DNA of 64,000 nucleotides from Candidatus Termititenax aidoneus. Lineage in GTDB: Bacteria > Margulisbacteria > Termititenacia > Termititenacales > Termititenacaceae. Where the stretch lies: assembly GCA_003864455.1 (NCBI GenBank), contig BGZN01000003.1:25484-89483 (forward strand). The letters run 5' to 3'. Made by a program: the position numbers and the translations under genes. Each line of letters starts with the position of its first letter. Position 1 is the first letter of the stretch. The notes under the pieces are model-generated. The model had not been told where the DNA came from. It did no database searches and saw nothing but the letters and a program-made list of their open reading frames with translations. This document shows positions 15,930-37,336 of the stretch, one piece after another.

Positions 15930-16004
15930 TCCCCGATCGTCTAATTGGTAGGACGACAGATTCTGGCTCTGTTAATCGAGGTTCGACTCCTTGTCGGGGA
16001 ACCA
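15930..16004 (+). tRNA. tRNA-Gln (anticodon CUG), 75 nt including the encoded CCA
   Basis: Hand-folded cloverleaf: acceptor TCCCCGA/TCGGGGA, D-stem GTCT/GGAC, anticodon stem ACAGA/TCTGT with loop TTCTGGC (anticodon CTG), T-stem CGAGG/CCTTG with loop TTCGACT, discriminator A, then CCA. Confidence 0.8.
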
Positions 16005-17555
16005 ATCCACCCTAGTATCCAACCCCGTTGAATTTAGTCTTTGACGATTCACGGAGTCAATCGGCCTTATCTTAATCCGTACTAAAGAGTCTTTGCTGTT
16101 TTCTTGAGGATAGAGCCGTATTTCGTCAATTATATAGCCTAGCAGTTTTTCTTTATCGATAAAACTTAATTCGTCATACATCTCGTAAAATATCCTAAGG
16201 GTGTCTCTTAGGTCATTATCGGTGGCTTTTTCCTGTTCTTTTAAGGCAATCAATTCATCGAAGTTCGAGCTTTCTAGGCCATATTTGGCAATTTCTTGCT
16301 CATACTTGCGGATAAGGTCGGCTAAATCGGGGTCATTTTTCGATAACTTTTGTAACTTATTTTCTACCCCTATTTTTTTGTTTAATATCCCTTGTTTCTG
16401 GTTGCGTAATTCTTGTATTTCTTTGTTCTGCTGCTTTCGTGCGTCAACTAAAACTTTTTCGAAGGCTAGATTATCCTTAAATAAATTCTTTAACTCCTCG
16501 GCTAGATGTTTTTCAATCAATTCGCTGTTAATTCTTATTCTTTTCTTTTTATTATCTTTAATATATGTATGCACATAATAATTGGTGTTGTTTTCCTTGT
16601 TATAGCCCATCTGCTTTTCAGAATCATTGTAAAACAACAAATCACTCAATATTCCCCTAGAAGCAGCAGACCTTCTTAATTCCGGTTTAGTATTGTCATT
16701 AAATATCTCTTGGCACAGGTTAAATACAGACTCGTTGATAATCTGACAAGACGGATTCCAATTAACAATTTTTCCGTCATGTCTGGCTTTACCAATGTAA
16801 TAGGGATTGTTTAGGACATTTTCCACATTATCCCTTTTGAAAGTTCTGTCTTTATTTTTTAAGTTTTGCTTATTCAAAAAATCAGCCACTTTTTTAGCAC
16901 TTTTTAACTCGATATATTTATCAAAAAGTAATTCAACAATAGGCCGTTCATCTTCATTGATTACAAGTTTTTTTCCGTTTTGGTCATATCCAAGGGGGAC
17001 TCGTCCGCCTCTAAATTGTCCTTCCTCAATCATGCGGTTCATACCGGTTTTAGTTCTTTCCGTGATAAGTTCACGCTCATATTCCGCAAAAGTTAAGATG
17101 ATATTCATCATCATTCGTCCTGCTGCTGTAGCAGTAGAAAAATCTTGTGTTATAGAAACAAGCGATATATCTTTGTACTTCAAATAATCGTTTATAAACT
17201 TGTAAAAATCACTAATGCTTCTGGTCAATCTATCAAGTTTATATATGACAATACAATTTATTTTACCTGCTTCAATATCTCTAACCAGTCGCTCATATTC
17301 GGGTCTATCTAAATTGCTCCCTGGCTTCCCTTTTTCGGCATATATTTCAGTCAGCACCCATCGTTGTTTATCGTCTGTGTCGTTGCGTAATGATATATGC
17401 TTTTTACACAGCTCGATCTGATTGTCCACAGAATCATGCTCTTTTAGTTGGCCGTATTTATCTTTGCCTTGTTTTTGGTCGCTAAATCTAGCATAAATTC
17501 CACAGCGTAATATTTTCTGTTCCTCGGTTTGAATAACAGCATTATTATTTTTCAT
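15972..17555 (-). CDS. Large serine recombinase (integrase) of the element; its last 11 codons are encoded by tRNA-Gln sequence
   Basis: N-terminal resolvase catalytic domain (YARFSDQKQ...; IYKLDRLTRS), recombinase domain and a coiled-coil-rich C-terminus; 527 aa. The stop lies at 15972-15974, inside the tRNA. Confidence 0.85.
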   Translation of the reverse strand: MKNNNAVIQTEEQKILRCGIYARFSDQKQGKDKYGQLKEHDSVDNQIELCKKHISLRNDTDDKQRWVLTEIYAEKGKPGSNLDRPEYERLVRDIEAGKINCIVIYKLDRLTRSISDFYKFINDYLKYKDISLVSITQDFSTATAAGRMMMNIILTFAEYERELITERTKTGMNRMIEEGQFRGGRVPLGYDQNGKKLVINEDERPIVELLFDKYIELKSAKKVADFLNKQNLKNKDRTFKRDNVENVLNNPYYIGKARHDGKIVNWNPSCQIINESVFNLCQEIFNDNTKPELRRSAASRGILSDLLFYNDSEKQMGYNKENNTNYYVHTYIKDNKKKRIRINSELIEKHLAEELKNLFKDNLAFEKVLVDARKQQNKEIQELRNQKQGILNKKIGVENKLQKLSKNDPDLADLIRKYEQEIAKYGLESSNFDELIALKEQEKATDNDLRDTLRIFYEMYDELSFIDKEKLLGYIIDEIRLYPQENSKDSLVRIKIRPIDSVNRQRLNSTGLDTRVDWFPDKESNLD

Positions 17556-17648
17556 AATTATAGATACGCTCCTTTATATAAAGATTATTATTTAATCAAA
17601 CTTGGGGCAGAGATGGGTAAAACCCTCTCTGCCAGTTTCACTAAATCT

Positions 17649-18347
17649 TTAGGCTTTCGCTACTAAAGATTCCTGCGGTTCTGCAACCGTTGAAGTTTGT
17701 TCAGCAGTTGCGGTCAAGGTGTTTTGTAAGTCTCTTAATTCTTTAAGAGCTTCCTCGACTTTGGCAATAGCTTCGCTTAATTGGTTTGGGTTTTTGATAT
17801 TCTTTACAACAATATCTTTTTCCCATCTGTTAAGCGAACGGCTGTTCCTGTTTTTGCAATATTTTTTATATATTGCTTCCAGACCTAGGCTGTCCACTTC
17901 AGCCTTTTTGTCGGGATTCTTAGATAGAAAATCACCCACCTTAGCATATTTCGAGACCAGTGCCTCGGACTTGCTTATTGCGGTGGAGACTTGGGCTTGA
18001 GTAATATCTTTATTATCAAGCACGGTCAAAACCGCTTTAGCAAATTCCGAGGGCATCAGATTCTTTCTCTGACAGTTCTCGGTAAGTTGGGTTAAGATGG
18101 TCTCCACACCATCTTTAGTTTCTGTAACAATCACAGGTACAGTTTCTAAATTGGCTAACTTAGCCGCCTCAAACCGCCTATGACCACAGATAACTTTATA
18201 GCCATCCCCCTCTTTTCTGGCACAGATGGGCTGCATAACCCCATAGGATTGGATGCTTGCTTTCAAGCTGTCCAATTTCCCCATGTCGGCACTCCGGATG
18301 TTCGTGCCGTTTGTTAATTGCTCCATAACCATATTGATCACTGCCAT
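17649..18347 (-). CDS. ParB-like nuclease domain protein
   Basis: ParB/Srx motif region MQPICARKEGDGYKVICGHRRFEAAKLANL. Confidence 0.65.
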   Translation of the reverse strand: MAVINMVMEQLTNGTNIRSADMGKLDSLKASIQSYGVMQPICARKEGDGYKVICGHRRFEAAKLANLETVPVIVTETKDGVETILTQLTENCQRKNLMPSEFAKAVLTVLDNKDITQAQVSTAISKSEALVSKYAKVGDFLSKNPDKKAEVDSLGLEAIYKKYCKNRNSRSLNRWEKDIVVKNIKNPNQLSEAIAKVEEALKELRDLQNTLTATAEQTSTVAEPQESLVAKA

Positions 18348-18671
18348 AATTCTTTACCTTTCTGTACAATCATGTACAATTTTATTTGCCAATTATCTGA
18401 CTTTATATCCAGAGTATATTTTTAAGAGATTGGGCTTATTACTCCACCTGCCTTTCAAGCATTTGTGCAGAAAAGTAATTTGCCGTACTAGACCTTGGCG
18501 AGCCTAGCTTAGTTAAATGTTTTCTTGCACAACAAATTTTGAAAGGGGCGTTTTACTTCCGGCTCAAGCTGTGGTTGGTTGTATGGCCGTTATCATTTAT
18601 TTCGCCCTGTTGTTAAACCACAGGTTTGGCAATACTATCAAACTCGCTATTTCTTGTCAACAGATATTTTT

Positions 18672-19358
18672 TCAATTCAACAAACCCTTAATTTTTTTCT
18701 GTGCCGTACCTGCACTTCTAATAAAATAATTTGTATCGCTTTTCATTTTGTTTTTTAGTTCTGCTAAATTTTCTTTCTCTGCTCCTCGGCTTAATCCGCA
18801 TTGTGCCAGTAAGTAACTTGCCGTAAGTGTGTTTGTCAGATTGTCATTTGTTTGTGGTTCTAAATTTTTTGCCAGAAAAACAATCGCTTTTCTAAAATAC
18901 TCCTCGGTATCAAGTCTGTTATCACGGGGCAGTTCTTTATCGGTTTTTTCAGAGCCTTTTTGTAACAGGTTATCAGTTTCATAGAGTTTATCGGGATAGA
19001 TATAATCGTCTTGCAAACCGGCAAAGTCAGCGTAGATCGATGTGTTGCACAAAGGGAATGAATGATAATAAGCCAGCCTGCCACCGGAGTTACAATTACG
19101 GAAGTAGGTCAGCAAAGCCCCTGTACTGCCTGTCATTATTTTACCGCCCATCTCTTTGATTTGCATGTAAGAGCCAAAGAATACATTGTTTTTTATGTTG
19201 TGCTGTCGGCAGTAGATACTCAATAAGGCTTGGTTTAATACGCTGTAATTCTGTTCACTGGCCATATTGCGGTATAGAAATCCTTGATTGAGAAAATCCA
19301 AACCGTTATTTTCTACATATCCTAAAACATAGTCATTTATAATATTTTCAACACGCAT
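18672..19358 (-). CDS. ArdC-N-like (ssDNA-binding, DUF1738-like) protein
   Basis: Architecture and motifs resemble the N-terminal domain of the neighbouring ArdC-like protein (…YRNMASEQNYSVLNQALL…FFGSYMQIKEMGGKI). A weak call. Confidence 0.4.
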   Translation of the reverse strand: MRVENIINDYVLGYVENNGLDFLNQGFLYRNMASEQNYSVLNQALLSIYCRQHNIKNNVFFGSYMQIKEMGGKIMTGSTGALLTYFRNCNSGGRLAYYHSFPLCNTSIYADFAGLQDDYIYPDKLYETDNLLQKGSEKTDKELPRDNRLDTEEYFRKAIVFLAKNLEPQTNDNLTNTLTASYLLAQCGLSRGAEKENLAELKNKMKSDTNYFIRSAGTAQKKIKGLLN

Positions 19359-19596
19359 AAGATTACCCCTTTTTATTTGATGTAAAAGTTTCGTAACAAA
19401 ACTATTGAAAAATTAGCCCTCGCTTAAAGACACCACCCACCTTATTTTTGAATACGGTTTTTTCTAAAATGTGGAGCGTTATTTTTAAGAAAGGACTAAT
19501 TATTTATTCACTAAGATTTAGCGTTTGATTTTTTCTTGTAAGATTTTCCGCAGAAAATCCATCTCTTTTTGGCTTAGATTAGACTTGAGCAATAAT

Positions 19597-20484
19597 CTAT
19601 CTTTGTTCATGGCACACTTCCTTTCCTGCACCCTCATTTAGCTTTCGTCCAAAAATATAATCTGCCGCCTTGCTTGCCTTACTGCTAGCAGACACAAGGG
19701 CTTCTTTTTGATTTTTTAGAAAGTTAGCCCAGTTATTGATATAGGCTTGTGTATTGGTTTTGTTTATAGGCAAGCCTAACTCTTGCATAATAAAACTGCT
19801 AGCCATTTCCGCTATCAATTCCTCTTGGCTGTATGAATTTCTATCTTTATTAAGGCTTTCCAGAGGTCTATTTAATCTTTTTGCATTTCCCGTCCAGTGA
19901 GACAATTCGTGAAAAGTAACACCGTAGTATTCGTTAGTGTTTATAAATGTTTCGGGTTTTTGTATATAAATAGTGTCCTCACTTGGTATATAGTAATTGC
20001 CGGAAACAGATACAATAAGATTAGGGTTGTTTGCTTTTATAACTCCCTCGGCTTTTTCGATAGGGTTAAAATTATTGTGCTGTTTTTCGGGTAACTTCAT
20101 ATTGGTTTGCTCTATGTTAAAAACATTGTAATAGCGTAATATGGGTATCTCTTTTACTTCTTTTAGACCGTTTTTATTTGTTACTTCTTTTTCCGTGATT
20201 GTCCAGTAGATAACCGGCACGGATTTTTCACCGCAATTTACGCTACCGCCTGCGTTTTTAATCTGTAAGAAAGTACCCCAGATATTATGTTTATAGCTTT
20301 TTTTGTTAGCGATATAAGTTAAATATAAATAATTTATACCTCTATAAGTTTTATTAGATTGTAGATTTTTAGGCAGCTCCGCAGCACAGGGGTTTTGCCA
20401 CGGTATAACACCTAACTCCAATCCTTTAATCAGTTCCTCTACTATTGCCTGTTGCTTCTCTTGTGCGATTGTCATGGTCAGCAC
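19597..20484 (-). CDS. ArdC-like antirestriction protein (ssDNA-binding N-domain + zincin-like metalloprotease C-domain)
   Basis: N-terminal …IPWQNP…YRGINYLYL…TFLQIKNAGGSV. C-terminal HExxH zincin motif FHELSHWTGN. Confidence 0.7.
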   Translation of the reverse strand: MLTMTIAQEKQQAIVEELIKGLELGVIPWQNPCAAELPKNLQSNKTYRGINYLYLTYIANKKSYKHNIWGTFLQIKNAGGSVNCGEKSVPVIYWTITEKEVTNKNGLKEVKEIPILRYYNVFNIEQTNMKLPEKQHNNFNPIEKAEGVIKANNPNLIVSVSGNYYIPSEDTIYIQKPETFINTNEYYGVTFHELSHWTGNAKRLNRPLESLNKDRNSYSQEELIAEMASSFIMQELGLPINKTNTQAYINNWANFLKNQKEALVSASSKASKAADYIFGRKLNEGAGKEVCHEQR

Positions 20485-20586
20485 CGCCTTTCATTGGTTA
20501 GTTATCTGCCAACGACAGAGGACAACTCCGAAGTGCGGTGCAAATATTGAAAGGCGGTTATTGAAGACTATGCGGAAGTTTAGTAA

Positions 20587-20826
20587 CTAAAGATTAGCGG
20601 TGTGGTTACTTTCATCTTTAATATTTATATTATAAGTATGATGGTCTTTAGTTTTTACGGTTACTCGCCATAATGTTGCGTCTTTTAATTTCTTTCGCCA
20701 CCAGATTTTTTCAACAATTTCTTTGTTTCCGACAGTTTCAACTATCAGATTTTCTATGTTGTTTCGTAACTTTATGTTTGTTAATTCATTGTCTATATCT
20801 ATTATTTTTCCCATTTCACCAGCCAT
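20587..20826 (-). CDS. Hypothetical protein, 79 aa
   Basis: ORF with an upstream RBS inside the AT-rich element. No recognised domain. Confidence 0.4.
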   Translation of the reverse strand: MAGEMGKIIDIDNELTNIKLRNNIENLIVETVGNKEIVEKIWWRKKLKDATLWRVTVKTKDHHTYNINIKDESNHTANL

Positions 20827-20870
20827 ATATACGCTCCTAAAATATTTTTACCTTCTTTAGAGACTAAAGA

Positions 20871-21293
20871 TTAGTTATTTATTTTTTTTGTTTCTCTGAC
20901 TTTTTCTAATTTTCTTTTAGCGGCATACGCTTGCTTCAAAAATGAGACCGCTTCTTTGTTGGTCGGCTCTAGTTTGACTACTTCCGTAAAATCTTTTATT
21001 GCCTTATCAAAGTTTTTTGTTTGAGCATACGCACACCCTCGAAAGAGATAAGCCGGTGCAACGCTTTTGCCGAATTTAATCGCCTTAGTAAAATCCGCTA
21101 TGGCCTTGCTCCAATTCTTTAGCTCAAAATAAGCAAGCCCACGGCCAAAATATGCCGTTGAGTGATCCGGCTTTAATTTAATGTATTCAGAAAAACTTTC
21201 GATTGCCTTATCCCAGTTTTCTTTTTCAAGGTACATCTTCCCGGTACTTAGGTACGCTTTTTTAGCTTGCCCTTTTGTCGATTTTTTAATCAT
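20871..21293 (-). CDS. TPR-repeat protein, 140 aa
   Basis: Three TPR-like units (W-LG-Y-A-F-P pattern: AYFGRGLAYFELKNWSKAIADFTKAIKF…). Confidence 0.6.
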   Translation of the reverse strand: MIKKSTKGQAKKAYLSTGKMYLEKENWDKAIESFSEYIKLKPDHSTAYFGRGLAYFELKNWSKAIADFTKAIKFGKSVAPAYLFRGCAYAQTKNFDKAIKDFTEVVKLEPTNKEAVSFLKQAYAAKRKLEKVRETKKINN

Positions 21294-21697
21294 CGATATG
21301 CTTCAGGGTCATATCGTATTGGCTCAGTTTCAAAACCTTTAATGATTTCCATTTGCATATTCTCATTTATTTTTACAAGTCCCCATTTACCATTTTTCAT
21401 TAAGGAAAATTTTCCGGTTGTTTGGTATTCACTAAACCAAATGTTATCATACTCAAAATTAACAATAATTTTTCCTTGTTTACTGATAACTCCCCACTTA
21501 CCGTTATATATTGCAGGAAATAAACCATTGTGATACTCATAAATTCTGACTTTGTCAAAAATACGTTCGCTAATTTGCTTTCCATATTCATCAAAAACTT
21601 TCCATTTAGTACTACTTATTCCCACGGCAGTTAGCCCTTTGTATTCTTGAATTTGAGTTCCCTTATCGTACCTTATATTGAATTTTTCACTACTCAT
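21290..21697 (-). CDS. WG-repeat protein, 135 aa
   Basis: Repeated (N/K)GKWG(V/L)(I/V) motifs (YNGKWGVISKQGKIIV; KNGKWGLVKINEN). Confidence 0.6.
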   Translation of the reverse strand: MSSEKFNIRYDKGTQIQEYKGLTAVGISSTKWKVFDEYGKQISERIFDKVRIYEYHNGLFPAIYNGKWGVISKQGKIIVNFEYDNIWFSEYQTTGKFSLMKNGKWGLVKINENMQMEIIKGFETEPIRYDPEAYR

Positions 21698-21720
21698 ACT
21701 TCACTTCTCCCATAATTTCT

Positions 21721-21948
21721 TTAAAGATTGTCCAAATTCTCAATTTCAATTTTGCCTTTGTGTATAGCTTTATGGCATGGCTGACATACGGAAACAATAT
21801 TGTTTGGATGGGATAGGCCGCCTAAGCCACGAGGAATATAATGATGCCCTGCACAGTTACCTTGTCCGCAAATTTCACATTTGTTTCCGGCTAATATTCT
21901 GCCTTCTCTTTGTGCTTTTATATCAATATAAGTTCTTTTTTTTGACAT
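21721..21948 (-). CDS. HNH endonuclease, 75 aa
   Basis: CEICGQGNCAGHHYIPRGLGGLSHPNNIVSVCQPCHKAIH is a classic HNH (CxxC…HH…N…CxxCH). Confidence 0.7.
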   Translation of the reverse strand: MSKKRTYIDIKAQREGRILAGNKCEICGQGNCAGHHYIPRGLGGLSHPNNIVSVCQPCHKAIHKGKIEIENLDNL

Positions 21949-21966
21949 AAATACTCTTGCACCTAA

Positions 21967-22188
21967 TCAAAATGAAGATAACGTCACATCGTCATTAGTA
22001 ATTTCTACCTCTCTATCGCCATAAGTAATAATACATTCAGTATCGTCAATGCTTACCATTCCATCCTTTTCAAAAATTATTTTAAAAATTTCCACCTTGC
22101 CGTTGGAATGTTTAACGACAATTTTATCATCATAGACATTGAGAACCTCATCACCTTTCTTTAATATTTCCAAGGATATTTTTTTCAT
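21967..22188 (-). CDS. Hypothetical protein, 73 aa
   Basis: ORF in the element's minus-strand gene string. No recognised domain. Confidence 0.35.
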   Translation of the reverse strand: MKKISLEILKKGDEVLNVYDDKIVVKHSNGKVEIFKIIFEKDGMVSIDDTECIITYGDREVEITNDDVTLSSF

Positions 22189-22206
22189 GTTGTCTCCTTT
22201 AAGTTA

Positions 22207-22419
22207 TTATTTCCCTTGCCCTGGCAAGAGATTGCGAAAAATCTGTTCGATTACTTTGCCGCCATACACACCTGTTCTGACTCTCATATCGGATTTGTGT
22301 GTTTTTTTATAGTCTTTTAGTACTTTTTTGACTTTTGGCATCACACGCTTAACATCTTTTGTTTTACCCATTATATTAACTGTGGCCGCACTTACCTCAT
22401 CATTGCTCATACAACTCAT
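22207..22419 (-). CDS. Hypothetical basic protein, 70 aa
   Basis: ORF in the element. Lys-rich. No recognised domain. Confidence 0.35.
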   Translation of the reverse strand: MSCMSNDEVSAATVNIMGKTKDVKRVMPKVKKVLKDYKKTHKSDMRVRTGVYGGKVIEQIFRNLLPGQGK

Positions 22420-22581
22420 CCTCTCTTTATGTTGTTTTAGTCAACAGCTCTGCCAGTTAAACTACAAACTCAAAACCATTATCGTTTTATACAGTTTAGT
22501 TAGAATTATACATTTGTATAGCAATAAAAACAATATCCATTCAAAGATAAAATTAAATGTCTCTTATTTAAGGAGGCATTT

Positions 22582-22971
22582 ATGGAAAATAAAACCACAG
22601 TAGAAAAAAGGTTAAAAACGCTGATCTCAACCAAGCTTCAAGAAATCAGAGAAGCGGCAGGCGGTCAATCGCTTGAGAAAATGGCCGAACAATTAAATCT
22701 AAATTATACTGTCCTGTTTCATATTTATTCGGGCAAATATTTGCCCAGATTGACAACCCTTACCCAAATTTTAGATTTTTACAATCTGCCGATAGAGATA
22801 TTTTTCAAAGATTTAACAAACAAAGATAAGGCCACACTTGCCAAAAATGCAAGTCATGCCACGCTAATTAGCGATTTTGATAAACTCGACAAACCAATGC
22901 AGGCCTCTATCCTAAAAATAGTCCGCAAATTAAATCTAAAAGAGAAAAAGCACAGGTATAGCGGTAAATAA
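22582..22971 (+). CDS. XRE-family HTH regulator of the element
   Basis: HTH-like LQEIREAAGGQSLEKMAEQLNLNYTVLFHIYSGKYLP. RBS aaggagg. It is the only plus-strand gene in the element's interior. Confidence 0.6.
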   Translation: MENKTTVEKRLKTLISTKLQEIREAAGGQSLEKMAEQLNLNYTVLFHIYSGKYLPRLTTLTQILDFYNLPIEIFFKDLTNKDKATLAKNASHATLISDFDKLDKPMQASILKIVRKLNLKEKKHRYSGK

Positions 22972-23047
22972 TTCTAAAAAATCTGTAACGGTTAAGTATT
23001 AAAGTCGAAACAGCATAAGTTTAGTGACTAAAGATTAGCCGTTTTTT

Positions 23048-24004
23048 CTATTTCTTTGACTTTCTTTTTTCGGCTTTTGCCTGTTCTAAATATTCATGTG
23101 CCTGTTTGTTATTGGGATTTAGCTCCACTGTTTTAGCAAAATCTTCAATGGCTTTGTCAAAATCGCCTTTACTGGCATACGCACAACCCCGATAAAAATG
23201 TGCCTCATCATAATCCGGTTCTAAGTTTATTGCCTTTGTATAACTTCTTATTGCCTTAATCCAATCACCTTTTTGAAAATAAGCATATCCTCGATATGAA
23301 TATGCTTGGATAGCAAGTCCTTGTCTCTCACGACTAGGATCAGATTTAATTGCCTCGGTATAATCCTCTATGGCCTTATCCCAATTTTCCTGAGCAGCAT
23401 AGGCACGTCCTCTATGCAGATATGTCAATTCATCTCCCGAATATAATTCAAGTGCCTTGTCGTAGTCTTTAATAGCCTTGTCAATATTTCCCTTTTCAAA
23501 ATACGCAATACCTCGATTGCAATAAACCATGTAATCATCATGCGTATAATTTTTATTCATTTTAATTCTTTTAGTGTAATCCTTTATGGCGTTATCATAA
23601 TCTTCCATATCACTATACGCATTTCCTCGCATGAGATATGCAATTTCGTCATTGCTGTCTAGTTTTGTTGCTTTGGTATAGTCCTCTATGGCTTGATTAA
23701 GGTTGCCTTTTTTGGCATATGCTACGCCTCTATTACAATATGCTATTCCATAATTTTTATCCAGCTTAATTGCTTCTGTATAACTTTTAATCGCATTGTC
23801 CCAATCATTTTCTTCACTATAAGCACACCCTTTATTATAAAACTCTACCGCTTGTTCGTCAGTCGATATACTCCTATCCTTAATGCCTAGTCTTTTTTTG
23901 AGATTCTTATAATACCTTTCTGGATTTTCGCAATAATCCCTATAATTAGGATCATCAAATTCTTTGTATTTATCTATAATTTCTTTTAATTCCGATTCGC
24001 TCAT
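23048..24004 (-). CDS. TPR-repeat protein (about 8 TPR units), ~318 aa
   Basis: Repeated AYxxRGxAYxxxGxxDKAIxDYTxAIKL units. Start chosen at MSESELKE (24004) rather than the ORF-track 24064. Confidence 0.65.
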   Translation of the reverse strand: MSESELKEIIDKYKEFDDPNYRDYCENPERYYKNLKKRLGIKDRSISTDEQAVEFYNKGCAYSEENDWDNAIKSYTEAIKLDKNYGIAYCNRGVAYAKKGNLNQAIEDYTKATKLDSNDEIAYLMRGNAYSDMEDYDNAIKDYTKRIKMNKNYTHDDYMVYCNRGIAYFEKGNIDKAIKDYDKALELYSGDELTYLHRGRAYAAQENWDKAIEDYTEAIKSDPSRERQGLAIQAYSYRGYAYFQKGDWIKAIRSYTKAINLEPDYDEAHFYRGCAYASKGDFDKAIEDFAKTVELNPNNKQAHEYLEQAKAEKRKSKK

Positions 24005-24005
24005 A

Positions 24006-24431
24006 TTAGTTATTCCCCTTAGGTTTACGCTGCCAAAAAGCAAGCCGAGGCAAAAACAGTACAAATCTAAGCAACCAAGATTCTGGCCAAGGATAATTAG
24101 AAAATGGCTTTTTGTTTTTTATTCTTTTTTCTTCATCGTCTTGGCTATATATTTTGGTAATGGACAGAAAAAACATATTAGGAGTAAGTTTTCTTATTAA
24201 CCCATTAGAGGCAGAAACTGCACCGCAACAGAAATCAAGGAACGGTTTTTTATCTGCTGCGTCTAATTCTTTAGTGGATAATATCAGCCAACCTTGAATC
24301 TTTAATATTGTGCCTGCTTGATGCATAGAATCTGCATCTGTTTTTTGCGGTGTATATGTAATGTCAGACAAGCTGTCCCTTATTTGTCCCTCATCTAATA
24401 ACTCCGACCCAGTTTTTTTATTTTTCGCCAT
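24006..24431 (-). CDS. Hypothetical protein, 141 aa
   Basis: ORF in the element. No recognised domain. Confidence 0.35.
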   Translation of the reverse strand: MAKNKKTGSELLDEGQIRDSLSDITYTPQKTDADSMHQAGTILKIQGWLILSTKELDAADKKPFLDFCCGAVSASNGLIRKLTPNMFFLSITKIYSQDDEEKRIKNKKPFSNYPWPESWLLRFVLFLPRLAFWQRKPKGNN

Positions 24432-24661
24432 ATATGCTCCTAAAAATTAAGTATATCATATCCTATTGCTTAACAATAATATATATTATTTGTTCTGCAA
24501 TAAACTAAAATGCCAGTATCAAAATCAGGCAAAATTTTGTGTTTGGACTGCTAAAATATTTATGACAAATTACCATACGGAATTTCGTCACGAAACTTTA
24601 TTATTCAAGGCAGACTCATTGTATATTCTTTGATAATAGTTACCCCCATTTACAGATTATT

Positions 24662-25294
24662 TTAGTTAAACCAGTCTAATTCTGTTTTGCCTTTGTAACC
24701 CTTTTCCCAGATAAACCATGCGTAACAAATGGTGCTATTGGTAGGGAAAGTAACAAAATCACCATTTCTGGCACAATTCAGACGTGAGCTTGAGACCCAG
24801 ATTTTCTTGGGCGGATTTTCAGTAAAAATCTTTTTGCGTGTTTTGCTTTCCAGATACCTAATGGGCAAAAACAACGCTAGCTTGCGGTTACAATCAAGAA
24901 TTTCTAAGGCTTTCTTCATAAATTCATTAGCATATTTATACGGTGGATTGGTAATAATATCGCCATGCCATTTCGATATGTAATCCTGTTTGTCTGTAGG
25001 ACTTGCTAAAAAATCATAATGCTTGCCGTACCCGTAATTATATTTATCAGTAGCCAACTTTAGTATGCCCTGCTTTTTTAACACTTTCGCCATGTGTCCT
25101 TGACCACAGGCACATTCCCATACGTCAGAGAAGTTATCTAGTTCTAAAAGTAATTCGGTTGCCTTTGGCTCTGTGGCGTAAAAGTCATGCATCTCACGGT
25201 CATGCAAGGCAAGATTCCGTGAGCCAATGCTCATATGTACGCTGTGTTTATTGCCTGTCCAATCTTTTGGCTTTTGATTTTTCTTGCCAGTCAT
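24662..25294 (-). CDS. Orphan N6-adenine DNA methyltransferase, 210 aa
   Basis: SAM-binding motif I (DVWECACGQGHM) followed by the catalytic motif IV DIITNPPY. No adjacent restriction endonuclease gene. Confidence 0.75.
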   Translation of the reverse strand: MTGKKNQKPKDWTGNKHSVHMSIGSRNLALHDREMHDFYATEPKATELLLELDNFSDVWECACGQGHMAKVLKKQGILKLATDKYNYGYGKHYDFLASPTDKQDYISKWHGDIITNPPYKYANEFMKKALEILDCNRKLALFLPIRYLESKTRKKIFTENPPKKIWVSSSRLNCARNGDFVTFPTNSTICYAWFIWEKGYKGKTELDWFN

Positions 25295-25335
25295 CTATAC
25301 TTAATAAAAGTTTCGCAACTAAACTTCTTTATTAT

Positions 25336-26574
25336 TCAAGGCGGCCTAATGGCATACTCTTTGAGGTCAACCCCTATCATAGAGCTTGTATAATCTATCC
25401 AGTCTATCAATCCGGCAAAAGCAGACATAACAATTTCATATTTATTTATCAACTCATGCCTGAGTTTTGTATAAAGATTATCAGGCAAAAAATCGGCTAC
25501 TTTATTAAACAGGGCATATATGCGTTTTCTTTCCCTGCACTTAGCCGAAGTGTCATTTTTATCGGAAAACCTATCATTAAGATACTGACTTATATTTAGT
25601 GTGTTAATATCTAAAAGCAAGTTTATTTCTTTCCATGATAAATGTTTACTTAACCAATCCCAAGTAAAAGTATTATTCCACAGACTAGGGTAGGGTTTGG
25701 CCTTGACTGGCAAAAAGTCTTTTAATTCTTTAGTGTAAACTTTCGTAAATAAACTTTGTAAGTTCCGTTTGGAGAATAAACTTTCTGCTGTAAACTTTGA
25801 GCCGTGAATTTTGCCAAAACTCTTTATCCGTTTACTGCCTTTGATTCTCAACTCTGCCCTTAATAGATTTATATCGCCAATATCAAAGTCCTGTTTTTCT
25901 CTTAATTCTTTGGCTTTATCATAAACACATAACAAATAACCCCCTTTTTTACTTCTAATATATAAAGAGCCTTTGAAATACCGGATTTGATTAGCATGAT
26001 GTTTTAAGTTTTCCTCAAAGAATACATAATAATCAGGCGGTCGGTTAGGAAGCTCTACATTAAGGGCTATATCTATTCTTGATATTTTTATATCGCTTAA
26101 ATCGACAACAACCCCGTTCTCTGCTAGAAAATCCTTAAACATTTCCCAAAATTTCCGGTATTGCTCATTAGTAGGCAGGGCTATATTATTACTGTTAAAA
26201 CATTTAGGGATATTTACAGTAATAAAAAGATTGCCGCTCCCTTGGCTTAAATTAAAGTGTCCGTCATTAAGCCAAAAATCCTTACACCGCAAAAAACCAG
26301 TACGCCCATCGTCATATAAAAGAGGGATAACATTATTTTTATCTGCCGTATTGCATTTATACTTTGTTAAGCAGGACTGTTTGATCCTGTACTTCTCGTG
26401 CGGCAGATAAAAAACTACGCTATCTGTGCCTACTACATAATCAAGGTTGGCTAAATTTATAAAGTTAGACTGTTGCCAGGCAAGGTTATCAAGATCAGTA
26501 AACATAATAAAATCATCATCAAATAAATCTGCAATCAAAGTCGCCTTATTATTAGCCAACACTGCTATCCTCAA
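25336..26574 (-). CDS. Rep_trans-like rolling-circle replication initiator / relaxase-like nickase, 412 aa
   Basis: Size and motifs (…LLCVYDKAKELREK… candidate catalytic Tyr in a YDK context) resemble the Rep_trans family found on ICE/IME and RCR plasmids. A moderate call. Confidence 0.45.
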   Translation of the reverse strand: MRIAVLANNKATLIADLFDDDFIMFTDLDNLAWQQSNFINLANLDYVVGTDSVVFYLPHEKYRIKQSCLTKYKCNTADKNNVIPLLYDDGRTGFLRCKDFWLNDGHFNLSQGSGNLFITVNIPKCFNSNNIALPTNEQYRKFWEMFKDFLAENGVVVDLSDIKISRIDIALNVELPNRPPDYYVFFEENLKHHANQIRYFKGSLYIRSKKGGYLLCVYDKAKELREKQDFDIGDINLLRAELRIKGSKRIKSFGKIHGSKFTAESLFSKRNLQSLFTKVYTKELKDFLPVKAKPYPSLWNNTFTWDWLSKHLSWKEINLLLDINTLNISQYLNDRFSDKNDTSAKCRERKRIYALFNKVADFLPDNLYTKLRHELINKYEIVMSAFAGLIDWIDYTSSMIGVDLKEYAIRPP

Positions 26575-26611
26575 TTTTCTTTTATAAATTGTCTGTTATG
26601 CGTTCTTGCCG

Positions 26612-26761
26612 TCATTGTTTTTTGTCCTCATTATTATTTGCCATACTTAATCTCATAGCCCGTCTGCGTTTGGCTTCTTTTATTACATTGCGAGCAATAA
26701 TTTCATTTACGGCCGCTGTCCTTTCCTCTAGGGTTGCATTCATTATCCTTAATAGAAACAT
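26612..26761 (-). CDS. Small basic protein, 49 aa (MFLLRIMNATLEERTAAVNEIIARNVIKEAKRRRAMRLSMANNNEDKKQ); candidate RHH/Xis-like regulator; below the ORF-track cutoff
   Basis: RBS GGGAGGTG 8 nt before the ATG. Immediately upstream of the Rep_trans-like gene, and divergent from the XRE gene across a palindromic operator. Confidence 0.4.
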   Translation of the reverse strand: MFLLRIMNATLEERTAAVNEIIARNVIKEAKRRRAMRLSMANNNEDKKQ

Positions 26762-26782
26762 TACAGAATCACCTCCCGTATT

Positions 26783-26812
26783 AAGCGTATGCTAGAATTA
26801 TAGCATACGCTT
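26783..26812. promoter_or_regulatory. Perfect 12-bp inverted repeat AAGCGTATGCTA-gaatta-TAGCATACGCTT in the divergent promoter region
   Basis: Read directly. Lies between the small RHH-like gene (minus) and the XRE-family gene (plus). Confidence 0.6.
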
Positions 26813-26838
26813 GAAAAAGGTCAACGGCTAGTATATAA

Positions 26839-27420
26839 TTGTGTTCTATGGCGATAAAACAGATAAACCCCGAACAGGCTCAACATTTGAAAAACCTGTT
26901 AAAACAAAAACAGATTAGCCTTGAAAAAATGGGTAAGGCTTTAGGTGTTAGCTTTCAGCTTGTTCATCAATACACTACAGGCCGGTGCAATCCATCGCCA
27001 GAAACAATGGCGGAAATGGCAAAGGTCTTAAGTGTTCCTCTTTGTTATATGTATATTGATTGCACGCAAAAAGCCTTAGAAGTTATTAGCAATTATTTTC
27101 AACAGCATGGCTTTTTCGTCAAAAAAGAGGTAGCAAAAACCTATTCTTGCGACCTGCTTTGCTTAAGCCCCATGCAAAACATTATCATAGCGGCAAATGT
27201 TAAAAAAACTTCGACAAAGAAATTTTCGGACTCAGCATTAAATATTGATTTTATAGAGCAATCTCTTAGAAAGACATACAATATAAAAAACTGTGTTTTT
27301 CTAAAGGTTGAAATAACTCCCGAAAAAGTACACATTAACTATGATAAGAAGTTAGAACATTTGCCCAGTTTACCAAAGTTACTTAAAGCTCTCGACAGTT
27401 TGTCGATTGTCTGGCCTTAG
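26839..27420 (+). CDS. XRE-family HTH regulator with a C-terminal extension, 193 aa
   Basis: HTH-like LKQKQISLEKMGKALGVSFQLVHQYTTGRCNPSPETMAEMAKVL. Confidence 0.55.
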   Translation: MCSMAIKQINPEQAQHLKNLLKQKQISLEKMGKALGVSFQLVHQYTTGRCNPSPETMAEMAKVLSVPLCYMYIDCTQKALEVISNYFQQHGFFVKKEVAKTYSCDLLCLSPMQNIIIAANVKKTSTKKFSDSALNIDFIEQSLRKTYNIKNCVFLKVEITPEKVHINYDKKLEHLPSLPKLLKALDSLSIVWP

Positions 27421-27573
27421 ATTTCTAACTACTAATTTTTTTCTATGACCATAAGCCCACATATTATAATGTTTAATACACAACCCTTTTCCGTGGTGCG
27501 GCTCATTACAACCTAATATAGTACAAGTCTTAATATATGGGTTTGGGAATAGGCCTACCCAAATAACGCTCAT
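27379..27573 (-). CDS. Cys/His-rich small ORF, 64 aa, at the right end of the element; in frame with the recombinase across the inferred attP
   Basis: CTILGCNEPHHGKGLCIKHY motif. The minus-strand frame is open from the element boundary (27618) to this ATG and matches the recombinase frame relative to the 10-bp core. Confidence 0.4.
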   Translation of the reverse strand: MSVIWVGLFPNPYIKTCTILGCNEPHHGKGLCIKHYNMWAYGHRKKLVVRNLRPDNRQTVESFK

Positions 27574-27631
27574 GGTATAATTTGTCCTTGCTCCATTCTT
27601 TGTATTGTAGGGTGGAATGGGGAACCAAAGT

Positions 27632-27730
27632 TACTAAAAGTCCTCCTTGCACGTCGCTACGCTTGTTGGTCTCACTTAACTTCGGGCTTACGCCCTTGTT
27701 AAGCTCGACGCGGGTAACCAAAGTGTTATA
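27632..27730 (-). repeat. Single diverged copy of the 104-bp repeat unit also found in tandem at 37032-37289
   Basis: Minus-strand read …GTCGAGCTTAACAAG[GGCGTAAGCCCG]AAGTTAAGTGAGACCAACAAGCGTAGCGACGTG… versus repeat unit …GTCGAGCTTAACAAG[CGAAGCG]AAGTTAAGCGAGACCCACAAGCACGCGAAGCGGGCGACGTG…. Confidence 0.6.
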
Positions 27731-27899
27731 CTTTAGGCTATGCGAAAGACGAAGCCTAAAAAACTCAAAGCGCGCGACGAAATTTTGCTGCGTCATATCA
27801 CTACCGGCAAGATCGGCTGCGGACCGCACAAAAATAAAATAAAATACAGCCGCCAACGCAGCAAACTCGAAACTAAAAATACCGCCGTGGAGGAACAAA

Positions 27900-28217
27900 A
27901 TGCCAAAACTTAAATTTACGCAGAACAGCAAAACTTACGAAGCGTGCGGCACGGATTTTCAAATACGCGTTTGGCAGGAATTGCGCAAGATCCCCAGAGG
28001 GCAAGTTATTACTTACGCGGAATTGGCGCGGCGCGCAGGCCGCCCGCGCTCCGCGCGGGCCGCGGCGAACGCCTGCGGCGCCAATCCGCTGCCGGTCATA
28101 GTTCCCTGTCACCGCGTTATCCGTGGCGACGGAGGTTTGGGCGGATACTCAGGAGTCGGCGGCGTGCGGAGAAAACGCGAATTGCTGCGCAAAGAGGGTT
28201 ATATTTTACTGGCTTAA
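27900..28217 (+). CDS. MGMT-family protein (O6-alkylguanine-DNA alkyltransferase DNA-binding domain only, YbaZ-like), 105 aa
   Basis: Active-site motif PCHRVI and an HTH (TYAELARRAG) are present. The N-terminal Ada/Ogt domain is absent. Confidence 0.8.
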   Translation: MPKLKFTQNSKTYEACGTDFQIRVWQELRKIPRGQVITYAELARRAGRPRSARAAANACGANPLPVIVPCHRVIRGDGGLGGYSGVGGVRRKRELLRKEGYILLA

Positions 28218-31200
28218 TTTTTTCTCGAGGCGTTTGATGTAATGTTCAGACCGGATTTCACAAAATATTTGCAAGGCTTTATCTAATATTTTTATTCTAT
28301 CGAAATAATTTTCATCGCGGCCTGTGGAATTGAACAACGAAGCGTAGTGGTACATAGATTTGCCCAGTTCATATTTACGGCCGATGAGTTTGCAGTGTTT
28401 TATAGACTGCAAAAATAACTTTTTAGCTTTGTCTTTTTTGTTGACCAGAACATTGTATCTCGCCGCCGCACGCAAAGCTCCGCCGTAATGTGTCGGCCAG
28501 TTTTTAGTCTCCCGTAAAGCTCTTTGGCTGGCTGCCTGAATTTGCCGCAGGAAATTTTCGCTGTCCGGAATTTTAGCCGTGTCGTTTTTATATTTTCGAT
28601 AATAAGCGATCAGGATTTCCGCATGATCATTCAAAATATTGATCGAATACTCTTTATTGAAATTCGCGCCTTCCGCGTTGTAATGCTCGATCGCTTCGGT
28701 GATGTAGCCTTTGGCTTTTTCCAGCTCGCCTTTTTCTAGGTAAAGCATGGACAGCTCGGTCAGCACATTGCAAAGCATTTGCTGTTCATCGCGTTTGTAC
28801 AATTCACGGGCATAACCTAAAGCGGTCAGGCCGGATTTTTCCGCTTGTTCCAGACTGCCTGTTTCAGCCCGAAGACTCAATTGCATCAAATTAGCGGAAG
28901 CCAGGCCGTAAGTGTCATTAGCCCTGGTTACGCGCACAAAGTATTTTTTGTTTAATTCATCGGCTGCGGGGTATTTGGCCAGCGCGTAATACACATAAGA
29001 CATGGAGGTTTGCACGCGGGCGATATGCTCGTTGTCGCCGGCTATGGAAAAATATTTAAGGCTTTTTTCCAGATAATGCTGGGCGCGGCGAAAATCCGCT
29101 TTTAGCCAGAGATAATTATAGGCCGAAAACTGATAAAGCTGCCCTAGACCAAAAGCGTTTTTGTTTTTCTCATTTTTTCCATACAGAATCTCAGCTTTTT
29201 CAAAGTATTTTTGCGCGGAATTAAACTTGCCGAGATTGAGCATGATAAGGCCTAGGCCGCAGTAACTTAAAGCTTCTTCACTGGATTTAGGCAGAAAATG
29301 TCTGGCGATGCCGTTCATTTTCAAAATACAATAGGTTAGTTTTAACCGATCGGTCGTGGAATAATTCCAGGCCAGCGTATTATAGAACCAGATTTTTTGC
29401 GCCGCGCGTTCCTTATCTGCCCGGGATTGTTCTGACGGAAAACTGGCCATAACGTCCAGCAACTGCAGGGCTAAATAGCCTTTCGTAACTCTTTCGGGAA
29501 AACTTTCCTCCAAAATTTTTAAACCATTCAGGCCGTAATATTCACAACTGCTGTAATTGGCTTGTTTATAATACGCGGCGCATAAAAAACTGTAAGCTCT
29601 GGCTTTATCCGGCGGTGAATTTAAAAAAGGCATAATTTTGTTGAGCAGATTTTCCGCTGACGCGACCTGTCCGACCACCAAATACAATTCGGCTAATTTT
29701 AAACCGGACTGGATATGTCCTTCTGAACCTTCCTGCGTGCTGGCGACTACAGACTCCAGCACATTGATCGCTTCTGCATAGGCAAAACCTTGAGCATGCT
29801 TCAGCGCGGCAGTATAACCGTGTTTCCAGGATTGATCCAGGATTACGGCGGATTGACTGTTTTGTGCGTGATAATAAAGGTCTTCGGCCTGCTCAGTTTT
29901 CTCTTCTGTGGTCAAACGGCCGTCCAGAAAATTTAAAGCGGCGGCATGTACAACGCTGCGGATTTTTTCCGGCAGATCATTCAAAAGCACCTGCCGGATA
30001 TAGTCATGGACAAAAACGATTTCATTTTGGTCGTTCAAGCGCACCAACTGAGCCTCCACAGCGTTGCGGATCTTAGTGGCGTTTAATTTCGGACATAGCC
30101 TGCTAAGGTCTTCAACAGTCAGGCTTTGCGCGCCGACCGCCGCGGCATAAATTAGCAAAGCTTTAGTCTCATTATCTAAAACATTCAGTTTGTCATGTAT
30201 CGAATCTTTGGTCAGCGGCGCAATAGAGATTCTTTCAGCCCGTTCTTCCGAGAAAGTCCATTGATTGTTTTTTAAGTAAAGAACCGGCGGGTCTATGGCG
30301 TTCTTTTCTGTGTTGGCGCTTTTTAGTTGTTTGACAATCTCCAGCGCATAGAAAGGATTGCCGCCGCTTTTTTTCTGCACCCAGTTGGCCAGGGCGGAAA
30401 TAGAGCTGTTCCTTTGCTGCAGCTCATTGACGATCATTTTTTCCGTGTCCCGTAAATTAAAATTTTGCAGAGCCAATTCTTTGGCGCTGGCCAGTAAATT
30501 TTCCTTGAGAAAATCAAAATTGACATGCAGCAAAGGCTGGATTTCTTTGTAGGTGCAGACCAGCAGCAGATAAGAACTGGCTAACTGTTCGCGGGATAAT
30601 TTTTCCAAAACTTCCTTGGAATATGAGTCGAGCCATTGTAAATCATTCAGCACGATGACCATGCCCTGTTCAGCCGCGGCCAGACAGAGCAAAAACCGGA
30701 TAAATATATTGCAGAATTTAAGCTGTTCGCTGGAAGAGGTGTCCATTTTGACTGAAAAAGACAAATTTTCGTCATTAAGGTTTAGATCGAGCAGTTCGCC
30801 TAATTGCGGAGCAAAACTCTGAATTTCTTTTTCATAATCTATGCCGTAGTTTTCCATCTGTTTTTTTAGCTCGGCTGAAATCGCTGCTTTTTTGTCGTGA
30901 GGATAACTTCTAAAACGTTTGATATACGTGATCAGTATTTGTTTGAAAGCCAGATAAGGCTGTTGCCGGTCGCCTAGTTCGAATCCGCCTTCCATAAACG
31001 GCTTGAGATTTGCTTTGGCAATAGGTTTCAACTGGCCGGCCAGAGCGGTTTTGCCAATGCCGGATTCGCCGCTGATTATATATACGTTGCCTTGTTTTTG
31101 CAGCGCGCTGTGGAAAGCGTTTTTTAATTGTTTTACTTCAGCAAGGCGTCCGACAAAATTTTCTCCGGAAGGAAAAGCGCTAAGGTTAGACGAGACACCC

Positions 31201-36972: not shown

Positions 36973-37031
36973 CAAATACTTATATGCTCATGGTATAAAA
37001 TTGCTGTTTGAGGGTATTCTTTTCCCAGCGC

Positions 37032-37289
37032 GACGTGATAATTTAAAAAAACGTGCAACGATTTTGGGTTGCTTACGAGTCGAGCTTAACAAGCGAAGCG
37101 AAGTTAAGCGAGACCCACAAGCACGCGAAGCGGGCGACGTGATAATTTAAAAAAACGTGCAACGATTTTGGGTTGCTTACGAGTCGAGCTTAACAAGCGA
37201 AGCGAAGTTAAGCGAGACCCACAAGCACGCGAAGCGGGCGACGTGATAATTTAAAAAAAACGTGCAACGATTTTGGGTTGCTTACGATA
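37032..37289 (+). repeat. Tandem direct repeat, 104-bp unit x ~2.5 copies (period 104; the third copy has A8 in place of A7 and is truncated), ending 48 bp before the giant gene's start
   Basis: Unit GACGTGATAATTTAAAAAAACGTGCAACGATTTTGGGTTGCTTACGAGTCGAGCTTAACAAGCGAAGCGAAGTTAAGCGAGACCCACAAGCACGCGAAGCGGGC. Copies begin at 37032, 37136 and 37240. Contains stems GCAAC/GTTGC and GCTTAAC/GTTAAGC. Confidence 0.9.
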
Positions 37290-37336
37290 TATTAGTAAGC
37301 ATAAAACCTGAAACTCGAAAATGTTAGGAGTAAGGT

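Follow-up and report, generated by a model that had tools for sequence, protein, structure and literature searches.

A REP-like family of hairpin repeats, possibly mobile as DNA, beside tRNA genes of termite-gut Margulisbacteria

The stretch analysed here, called the window throughout, comprises 64,000 nucleotides of contig BGZN01000003.1 (positions 25,484 to 89,483) of Candidatus Termititenax aidoneus. At 27632-27730 of the window, on the minus strand, lies a sequence that resembles a 104-bp unit repeated in tandem ahead of a giant gene. A sequence-only reading had described it as a diverged second copy of that unit at the right border of an integrative element, and had proposed that both loci carry 5′ cis-regulatory RNA or operator modules from a dispersed family. 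The question raised by this locus is whether the two sequences are related at all and, if they are, what kind of element they represent. We found that both contain copies of one small structured element that recurs in related genomes. In the reading that we favour, to which we give about as much belief as doubt, these copies constitute a family of ~60-70 nt non-coding, non-autonomous hairpin repeats of termite-gut Margulisbacteria (Termititenax and relatives).

Tandem Repeats Finder reports 2.5 copies of the 104-bp unit, with 99% matches, at 37030-37287 (locus A), and the minus strand of 27650-27709, which we call copy B, aligns with the core of this unit as a diverged copy. The blocks GTCGAGCTTAACAAG, GAAGTTAAG[C/T]GAGACC[C/A]ACAAGC and GCGACGTG are common to copy B and the tandem unit. 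The pattern GAGCTTAACN{8,20}GTTAAGYGAGAC occurs at three sites in the window (27669-27706 on the minus strand, 37082-37114 and 37186-37218 on the plus strand) where 0.00 are expected by chance (100 shuffles), and the 23-mer GAAGTTAAGYGAGACCMACAAGC from the 3′ block is found in the window at those three sites only, even with 3 mismatches allowed. In the predicted folds a 7-bp stem, GCUUAAC/GUUAAGC, is kept at both loci (with one G-U pair in copy B) and is flanked by GUC/GAC and a GA/GA internal loop, while the apex AA-GC-GAA-GC-GAA of the tandem unit is replaced in copy B by AA-GGGC-GUAA-GCCC-GAA, a small hairpin of its own. As the pattern and 23-mer hits lie beyond chance and the fold is kept, we conclude that the resemblance of copy B to the tandem unit is real and non-random, as had been claimed. 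The individual copies are as follows.

27650..27709, minus strand: copy B, 60 nt, detected by the covariance model described below at 78.6 bits (E 1.7e-21)
27709-07, 27706-05 and 27704-27698, minus strand: 5′ stem parts of copy B, namely GUC, GA and GCUUAAC, followed by AA
27695-84, minus strand: apex of copy B, GGGC-GUAA-GCCC, followed by GAA, GUUAAGU (27680-74), GA and GAC (27671-69)
27668-61, minus strand: linker of copy B, CAACAAGC, followed by GUA and GCGACGUG (27657-50), without a second hairpin
37079..37141, plus strand: copy A1, 63 nt, 86.4 bits, with P1 hairpin at 37079-37119, linker CCACAAG, P2 hairpin CACGC-GAA-GCGGG and end GCGACGTG
37183..37245, plus strand: copy A2, same sequence as A1

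The limits of copy B were set by comparing filled with empty sites in relatives. The element starts GTCGAR and ends GYGMMGTR, its terminal inversion being only 4 nt long (GTCG/CGAC). The extent originally assigned, 27632-27730, holds the whole element together with flanking sequence on either side (27640-27649 and 27710-27723) that derives from a duplicated tRNA-Gln 3′ end.

Across the family the 5′ hairpin is built from GUC/GAC, a tandem GA/GA loop, the 7-bp stem, an AA/GAM loop and a variable apical mini-hairpin, and the 3′ part from a single-stranded linker CCACAAGC, an optional second 5-bp hairpin and the end GCGACGTG; the second hairpin is present in the tandem-unit copies and is missing in copy B and in its counterpart L018, described below. 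We scored the three helices and the second hairpin in a model-guided alignment of 9 copies (8 distinct), whose fitting to a covariance model makes the counts lean toward the proposed structure. Among the 8 distinct sequences, standard pairs fill 96.9% of cells and both-sided changes are seen at 7 pairs; the observed pairing values were reached by none of 500 shuffles, and slid controls paired in 19-38% of cells. In the 7-bp stem, pair 1 appears as G-C, G-U and A-U among copies (and as A·A in the type II sequences defined below) and pair 5 switches between A-U and C-G. The second hairpin covaries at three positions (for example CACGC/GCGGG, CCUGC/GCAGG and CACAC/GUGUG). The apical helix varies from 2 to 6 bp with sequences that are unrelated among copies, and the distance between the arms of the 7-bp stem takes values of 12, 17, 20 and ~83 nt. 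GA/GA is invariant and AA/GAM nearly so. The suggestion of a structured element is thus borne out by compensatory changes in copy B and seven more copies. Folding favours the sense strand, which carries the G-U pairs, over the antisense strand by ~4 kcal/mol. Of the hairpin caps, about half fit GCGNAGC or GCGNNAGC, motifs of exceptionally stable DNA mini-hairpins reviewed by Kimoto and Hirao (PMC13037366), and this match is a hint, short of proof, that the single-stranded DNA form matters.

Further copies were sought with a pattern scan of one genome per species, and with a covariance model built from five copies and run on loci fetched via MGMT and NusG orthologues. The pattern scan returned two true copies (L001 and L002), both in the Margulisiibacteriota metagenome-assembled genome (MAG) JAITIE01, and the covariance model those in L017, L018, L025 and L026. 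Together the two approaches gave six full copies and one truncated copy beyond the window, in five other Margulisbacteria assemblies, and it can be seen that the family is indeed dispersed. All copies are intergenic. They lie in these loci.

L001 (bin101): right after the CCA of tRNA-Trp, ahead of secE-nusG
L002: between divergent genes, with a co-oriented 284-aa gene downstream
L017 (T. persephonae): 26 nt past tRNA-Ser, with a 67-nt insertion in the apex
L018 (another MAG): tRNA-Gln orthologue of copy B
L025: tRNA-Trp trailer, after a second, duplicated CCTGCCA
L026: a full copy and a truncated one, each within a duplicated tRNA-Gly 5′ half

No copy was found in the more distant relatives (L019-L023 and L029-L033, ~130 kb), a scan of viral sequences gave 0 matches, and blastn of the unit against plasmids and phages gave none. 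Among the Rfam 15 covariance models neither locus of the window has a match at the gathering threshold, and relaxing E up to 10 yields only a meaningless rli37 fragment; the element thus matches no Rfam family. A Paenibacillus match to the pattern lies in coding sequence and was rejected as chance, as were all 13 loci returned by a metagenome scan with a degenerate stem pattern, which are matches in high-GC coding sequence. Separately, two weak partial likenesses (E 0.05-0.2) were seen at L018 970-989 and L022 4040-4100 (E 0.05), the one a TAACAAGCGTAGCGAAGTTA hairpin ending a small gene and the other a tail-like stretch of GACCAACAAG, hairpin and CGCAGTG; they are unconvincing, and may be relics or chance.

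The copies fall into sequence types according to their 7-bp arms. Type I (GCTTAAC/GTTAAGY) is found in T. aidoneus and in the distant bin101, and type II (ACTTCAC/GTGAAGA) in T. persephonae and L018; L026 holds a type I′ (ACTTAAC/GTTAAGT) together with type II. Over the hairpin plus linker, the T. aidoneus locus A copy and the L001 copy of bin101 are 97% identical, and copy B and the L018 copy at the orthologous site only 83%. NusG is only 55% identical between bin101 and T. persephonae. The sequence types are discordant with both phylogeny and position.

Orthologous sites with and without the element are seen most clearly behind tRNA-Trp. This trailer is filled in two assemblies (L001 and L025) and empty in four (L024, L026, L030/L031 and L033); in L026, L030/L031 and L033 the gap between tRNA-Trp and secE is only 17-28 nt, from which we conclude that these trailers are empty. 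The empty site of T. persephonae reads CCTGCCA followed directly by AGCGCG, and the filled site of L001 reads CCTGCCA, then the element as GTCGAGC...GGCGAAGTG (its end also given as GCGAAGTG), then AGCGTG. The boundaries are sharp and there is no target duplication.

To place copy B, the neighbouring island has to be delimited. The features concerned are listed here.

15930..16004, plus strand: tRNA-Gln(CUG), whose 3′ end bears the attL-side GGGGAACCAA (15996-16005)
16006..27618: low-GC integrated island, of which the element is not part
16006-22 and 27600-27617: inverted ends of the island, TCCACCCTAGTATCCAA and TTGTATTGTAGGGTGGAA respectively, just inside the repeats
15972-17555, minus strand: large serine recombinase, whose stop codon overlaps the tRNA 3′ end
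25336-26574, minus strand: Rep_trans/filamentous-phage G2P-like initiator
26839-27420, plus strand: helix-turn-helix protein
27379-27573, minus strand: Cys/His-rich small open reading frame (ORF) of 64 aa, island DNA
27619..27628, plus strand: GGGGAACCAA, attR-side copy of the 10-bp direct repeat bounding the island
27640..27649, plus strand: GTCCTCCTTG, left half of a decayed tRNA-Gln 3′-end duplicate (the tRNA reads GACTCCTTGTC)
27710..27723, plus strand: GCGGGTAACCAAAG, right half of the same duplicate (the tRNA reads TCGGGGAACCAA)

From the 10-bp repeats and the inverted ends it follows that the island stops at ~27618-27628, and copy B is therefore host DNA, 22 bp beyond attR. The element had been placed at the right border of the integrative element and had been said to have the same orientation relative to its downstream gene at both loci. 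Neither claim is supported, since an orthologous copy stands behind tRNA-Gln in L018, and since the Cys/His ORF belongs to the island, so that its adjacency to the element was created by insertion. Copy B interrupts a decayed duplicate of the tRNA-Gln 3′ end, GACTCCTTGTCGGGGAACCAA, which L018 shows more cleanly as tRNA-Gln, then GTCGTCCTTGT, the element on the minus strand, and TCGGGGAACCAA. On this arrangement the element would, before integration, have stood on the strand opposite to tRNA-Gln, some dozens of bases behind it and pointing at the tRNA 3′ end. In host DNA, a duplicate of the tRNA-Gln 3′ end may long ago have received copy B as an insertion, the serine-recombinase island integrating later, 22 bp away.

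As side observations on this region, the island (~11.6 kb, 15972-27628, at the tRNA-Gln 3′ end) has imperfect terminal inverted repeats that together rebuild a palindromic attP, and at 20850-23720 several minus-strand ORFs with diverged internal repeats spaced ~102-120 nt (families D1-D4), probably encoding repeat-containing proteins. Beyond copy B, a basic 57-aa ORF (27740-27913) overlaps the start of a gene for an MGMT-like protein (27900-28217) that is 100% identical to a T. aidoneus protein. Relatives keep this ORF (with 60 aa in L017 and 57 aa in L018); it has no Pfam match, and a -10-like site, TGTTATACT, would leave its mRNA almost without a leader. Between MGMT and a PALP gene lies a 1015-aa AAA_16/TPR STAND-type NTPase (28206-31253), which is missing at that position in relatives L017-L022 and may be an inserted defence-type gene.

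The second locus of the window lies upstream of the giant gene (ATG at 37337; protein NO1_0359 of T. aidoneus). Its sole homologue, 32% identical, stands in a syntenic locus, L029, whose leader is strikingly similar, contains the segment GTGAATAG...TTACTTACGA once and has no element. Besides copies A1 and A2, the array comprises the following.

36991..36999, plus strand: TGGTATAAA, an extended -10-like site by consensus match only, which would make the array part of the giant gene's 5′ leader
37030..37037, plus strand: GCGACGTG, an isolated element 3′-end fragment opening the array, missing at the empty site in L029
37038..37078, plus strand: native leader segment S, triplicated (also 37142-37182 and 37246-37287) and single in L029

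Read in order, these are the GCGACGTG fragment, segment, element, segment, element, segment, and then TATATTAG, at which the conserved leader takes up again. From the 100% identity of the units it follows that the tandem amplification is very recent. The comparison with L029 indicates that the array arose by a lineage-specific insertion of the element into the conserved leader and by later amplification, in tandem, of element plus leader segment, and that it is not an ancestral regulatory module. The similarity TTTGG(G)TT.C..CG upstream of both loci had been noted in the alignment; it is not part of the element, and we rejected this shared homology as evidence of a larger unit, as it is native locus A leader and is also present in the element-free L029.

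We also noted that the giant-gene leader itself (36975-37340; L029 2925-3090), including the Shine-Dalgarno region and the first codons (MYQYL), is conserved far better between T. aidoneus and a distant MAG than the protein (32% identity), and that this native leader may itself be a regulatory element. Three consecutive giant ORFs of 2644, 1566 and 3009 aa fill 37337-59040; the first has no Pfam domains and one distant homologue only in 5.8 billion clusters, and the L029 homologue of the second gives a weak Glyco_hydro_8 match. In L029 a ~43-nt direct repeat, GCCGTGGTAAACTCAGACAATTGGTTCGAATTTGTGTTGTAGG (1398-1450 and 2908-2950), flanks an AbiEii/DUF6088 toxin-antitoxin pair. This repeat ends like the right-end inverted repeat of the window island and begins like a T. 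persephonae junction (L017 ~8873-8890), which suggests a shared family of recombination sites.

Taken over the family, four of six independent loci touch tRNA genes or fragments, neighbourhoods that make up <2% of the DNA examined, with the reservation that ascertainment is imperfect, although the tRNA-Ser and tRNA-Gly cases were incidental finds. The contacts differ: after the CCA of tRNA-Trp, 26 nt past tRNA-Ser, within tRNA-Gln 3′-end duplicates (in two genomes) and within tRNA-Gly 5′-half duplicates. Copies are found in both orientations, and the truncated copy of L026 (L026b) is cut exactly between two GCGACGTG repeats. In two genomes a second module of ~62 nt is nested in the element at two different places, each time immediately 5′ of CAAGC: in the apex in L017 (between ACTTCAC and CAAGCGC) and in the linker in L002 (between GACCCA and CAAGCC). 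Its hairpins are GYCRGCT-YGGTY-AGCYGAC and GGCGGCTTGARGCCGC.

Three observations made alongside concern the modules and the tRNA loci themselves. The nested modules (L017 829-895 and L002 5230-5292, minus strand) are 77% identical with compensatory changes, and are probably a separate small repeat family. The tRNA trailers (L024 9593-9740; L025 2929-3115; L017 7661-7765 and 8890-8985) are tandem duplications of a tRNA 3′ end plus a GC-rich hairpin trailer of ~50-85 nt; behind tRNA-Trp T. persephonae has three units starting CCTGCCA, resembling the E. coli tyrT/rtT repeats. In L026 (2948-3200), two tandem pseudo-copies of a promoter and tRNA-Gly 5′ half, each interrupted in the D-arm region by an antisense element, lie upstream of the real gene.

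The proposal that these are 5′ cis-regulatory RNA or operator modules was not upheld. The adjacency at copy B was made by the island; the conserved leader of L029 and four of the six tRNA-Trp trailers do without the element; orientation and context are inconsistent, with copies lying either way round, in tRNA fragments, truncated or with nested insertions; and the arm spacing varies from 12 to ~83 nt. The genes downstream of copies are functionally unrelated, and no element precedes the 57-aa ORF-MGMT pair in T. persephonae. The reading that we prefer instead, and for which the arguments on either side seem to us evenly matched, is that of a hairpin repeat of REP/REPIN-like kind, specific to the lineage and spreading as DNA with no duplication of its target. 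Its sense strand would fold in single-stranded form, and an enzyme encoded elsewhere would act in trans, recognising the shape and the fixed bases (GA/GA, AA/GAM and the linker), the closest working models being REP/REPIN with RAYT and the IS200/IS605-type HUH transposases; gene conversion or horizontal exchange would then homogenise copies within a genome. Most copies lie sense-oriented in non-coding DNA that is transcribed, which makes secondary effects on the stability or processing of RNA likely, without these being the likely reason for which the family exists. Mobility as DNA and a function as RNA need not exclude each other, as REPs illustrate.

Several points weigh against spread as DNA. 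Presence and absence could derive in part from loss and not gain. The element has no conserved flanking target motif (the 5′ flanks end CGA, CGC, CCA, TGC, TGT and CGT), its orientation shows no rule with respect to GC skew, and a survey of the Pfam-annotated neighbours in L017-L033 turned up neither a transposase nor a RAYT close to any of the copies. Only ~10 copies occur in ~170 kb of element-positive assemblies (~1 per 20 kb), far below classical REP density; the strict pattern, which misses variant types, finds only 2 copies in the whole bin101 MAG. Sense transcription, in a tRNA trailer or a 5′ leader, is compatible with six of seven loci. Finally, the core is conserved across genomes with ~55% NusG identity, which is unusually strong for selfish DNA and could likewise be expected of a functional RNA or a protein-binding site.

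A potential explanation that takes up these last points is that the element is primarily a functional structured RNA, either a hairpin for stability or processing or a small RNA that binds protein, co-transcribed with tRNAs or lying in 5′ leaders, with patchiness due to duplication and loss. We consider this somewhat unlikely, while taking it seriously. Three helices are kept by covariation, the internal-loop and linker bases are fixed across distant genomes, the G-U pairs and the GA/GA loop favour one strand, and the six sense-compatible loci place the element in a tRNA trailer (Trp twice, Ser) or upstream of a co-oriented gene (the giant gene, the L002 284-aa gene and an L026 NTP-transferase), with a -10-like site upstream of the locus A array. 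Such a role is hard to square with the tRNA-Gln copies (copy B and L018), which are antisense to surrounding transcription within a tRNA fragment, or with the L026 copies, antisense within pseudo-tRNA-Gly halves; the genes downstream share no function, orthologous leaders and trailers work without the element, truncated and nested-insertion copies persist, and Rfam offers no match. A more radical idea is that of an undescribed class of mobile hairpin that seeks tRNA flanks and inserts without duplication (as folded single-stranded DNA with an unrecognised enzyme, or through an RNA or cDNA intermediate that joins tRNA ends, two copies starting exactly after the CCA of tRNA-Trp), with a sister module inserting into it site-specifically, or, alternatively, of a new class of structured RNA released from tRNA precursors; we think this improbable.

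The tRNA neighbourhoods could also mean that the element accompanies site-specific integration at tRNA genes, as an accessory or as a remnant, and belongs to an att site or forms the end of an integrative element. It adjoins duplicated tRNA 3′ ends, which are typical integration scars, copy B lies 22 bp from attR, the element-interrupted tRNA-Gln duplicate of L018 directly precedes an island-end-like TCTACCCTGG, and the terminal GTTCGAC (the reverse complement of GTCGAAC) fits the tRNA-Gln T-loop. We nevertheless regard this as quite improbable: four tRNA species are abutted at differing tRNA positions and in both orientations, copies at locus A and L002 have no tRNA or island nearby, and the island's own ends contain no copy (E up to 10). 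In local alignments of 6 copies against 9 tRNAs the element proper has no significant tRNA similarity in either orientation (best z 2.6 in 108 tests), the likeness lying in the flanks, and a tRNA-derived origin was rejected on the same result. Least credible of all, and in our judgement very nearly dismissed, is a double-stranded DNA operator in which an inverted repeat binds a dimeric transcription factor controlling the adjacent gene. The 7-bp inverted arms GCTTAAC/GTTAAGC do lie near promoters at locus A and upstream of the 57-aa ORF; however, arm spacings of 12, 17, 20 and ~83 nt effectively refute a dimer operator, the arms covary for pairing and not for sequence (A-U to C-G, G-C to A-U), the asymmetric GA/GA mismatch is invariant and the gene contexts are unrelated.

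Other candidates were tried and rejected. An intrinsic terminator would be followed by a U tract, and no consistent one follows the copies. Peptide coding is incompatible with the 104-bp period and the 5-nt loop indel, which break any reading frame. An rrn boxA-like antitermination signal (TTAACAA) was dismissed because the motif is base-paired and covarying and reads TTCACAA in type II, and a type III antitoxin-like tandem RNA because there is no toxin gene and copies elsewhere are single. A promoter -10 consensus is the simplest account of the GCTCATGGTATAA found upstream of both loci, since TGGTATAAW occurs 5 times in the window where 1.05 are expected; alignment outside this 13-mer is weak. 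Unconnected with the element, a 93-nt tandem duplication of 83% identity lies within a coding region at 5772-5957.

A candidate phylum known only through single-cell genomes and MAGs thereby gains a defined repeat family supported by its structure, whose ends are precise, whose empty sites serve as controls and whose covariance model can be applied to any assembly. Repeats of this sort interrupt assemblies and lead annotation astray; here one copy had been taken for a feature of the island border and for a riboregulator. They also point to hot spots at tRNAs where accessory genes gather (the island, Fic, MNT/HEPN and AbiE), and are usable as strain markers. If the preference for tRNA ends and the duplication-free insertion do reflect a new mobilisation mechanism, the family would offer a compact system for studying the recognition of folded single strands.

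It remains to compare the element with known systems. It shares with integron attC sites a conserved structure whose apex is highly variable, folding as a single strand and, in types I and I′, 7-bp cores that fit RYYYAAC...GTTRRRY. In contrast to attC, type II (ACTTCAC/GTGAAGA) breaks the core consensus, the core ends are 26-34 nt apart instead of at least 57 nt, there are no L boxes or extrahelical bases, pairing extends outside the cores, and the copies are scattered singly with neither cassette array nor IntI. The units behind tRNAs in L024, L025 and L017 carry a piece of tRNA 3′ end as do the E. coli tyrT/rtT repeats, and the element is found among them; however, tRNA sequence shows no relation to the element proper, some copies lie at a distance from tRNAs, and Rfam gives no rtT match. 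Like the classical miniature inverted-repeat transposable elements (Correia/CREE, ERIC, RUP and BOX) it is small, non-coding, dispersed, sometimes nested and lineage-specific, although its terminal inverted repeats are only 4 nt (GTCG/CGAC) and the filled tRNA-Trp site has no target-site duplication.

The likeness to IS200/IS605-derived non-autonomous elements (PATEs) and other HUH DNA lies in the lack of target duplication, in hairpin-defined ends and in strand-specific imperfect hairpins, and the nested module adjoins the pentanucleotide CAAGC at both of its insertion sites. The element differs from them in that no constant tetra- or pentanucleotide forms its 5′ flank, its left end is at the hairpin foot and not ~19 nt away, neither TnpA nor TnpB is nearby and orientation follows no GC-skew rule. 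REPs carry a GTAG (CTAC) tetranucleotide at the head of the palindrome. The present element has no such head, all copies starting GTCGAR at the hairpin foot; it also ends in a long, conserved 3′ tail that includes a second hairpin, favours tRNA flanks, has no RAYT gene among its Pfam-annotated neighbours and is seen about once per 20 kb of the DNA covered as opposed to the hundreds of REPs per genome. Because it lacks a GTAG head, a RAYT among the neighbours surveyed, a constant target flank, terminal inverted repeats and target-site duplication, and is too short for attC, we have not filed it in a named family. What it has in common with the REP/REPIN system (including BIMEs and RAYT) is its short, imperfect extragenic palindromes with conserved mismatches, presumed recognition as a folded strand, ends without terminal inverted repeats or target duplication, occurrence in both orientations, mosaics with other small motifs and a place in transcribed intergenic DNA, where the stability of RNA can be affected. 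We place the element in no named family and, on the best-supported reading, with a general REP-like kind.

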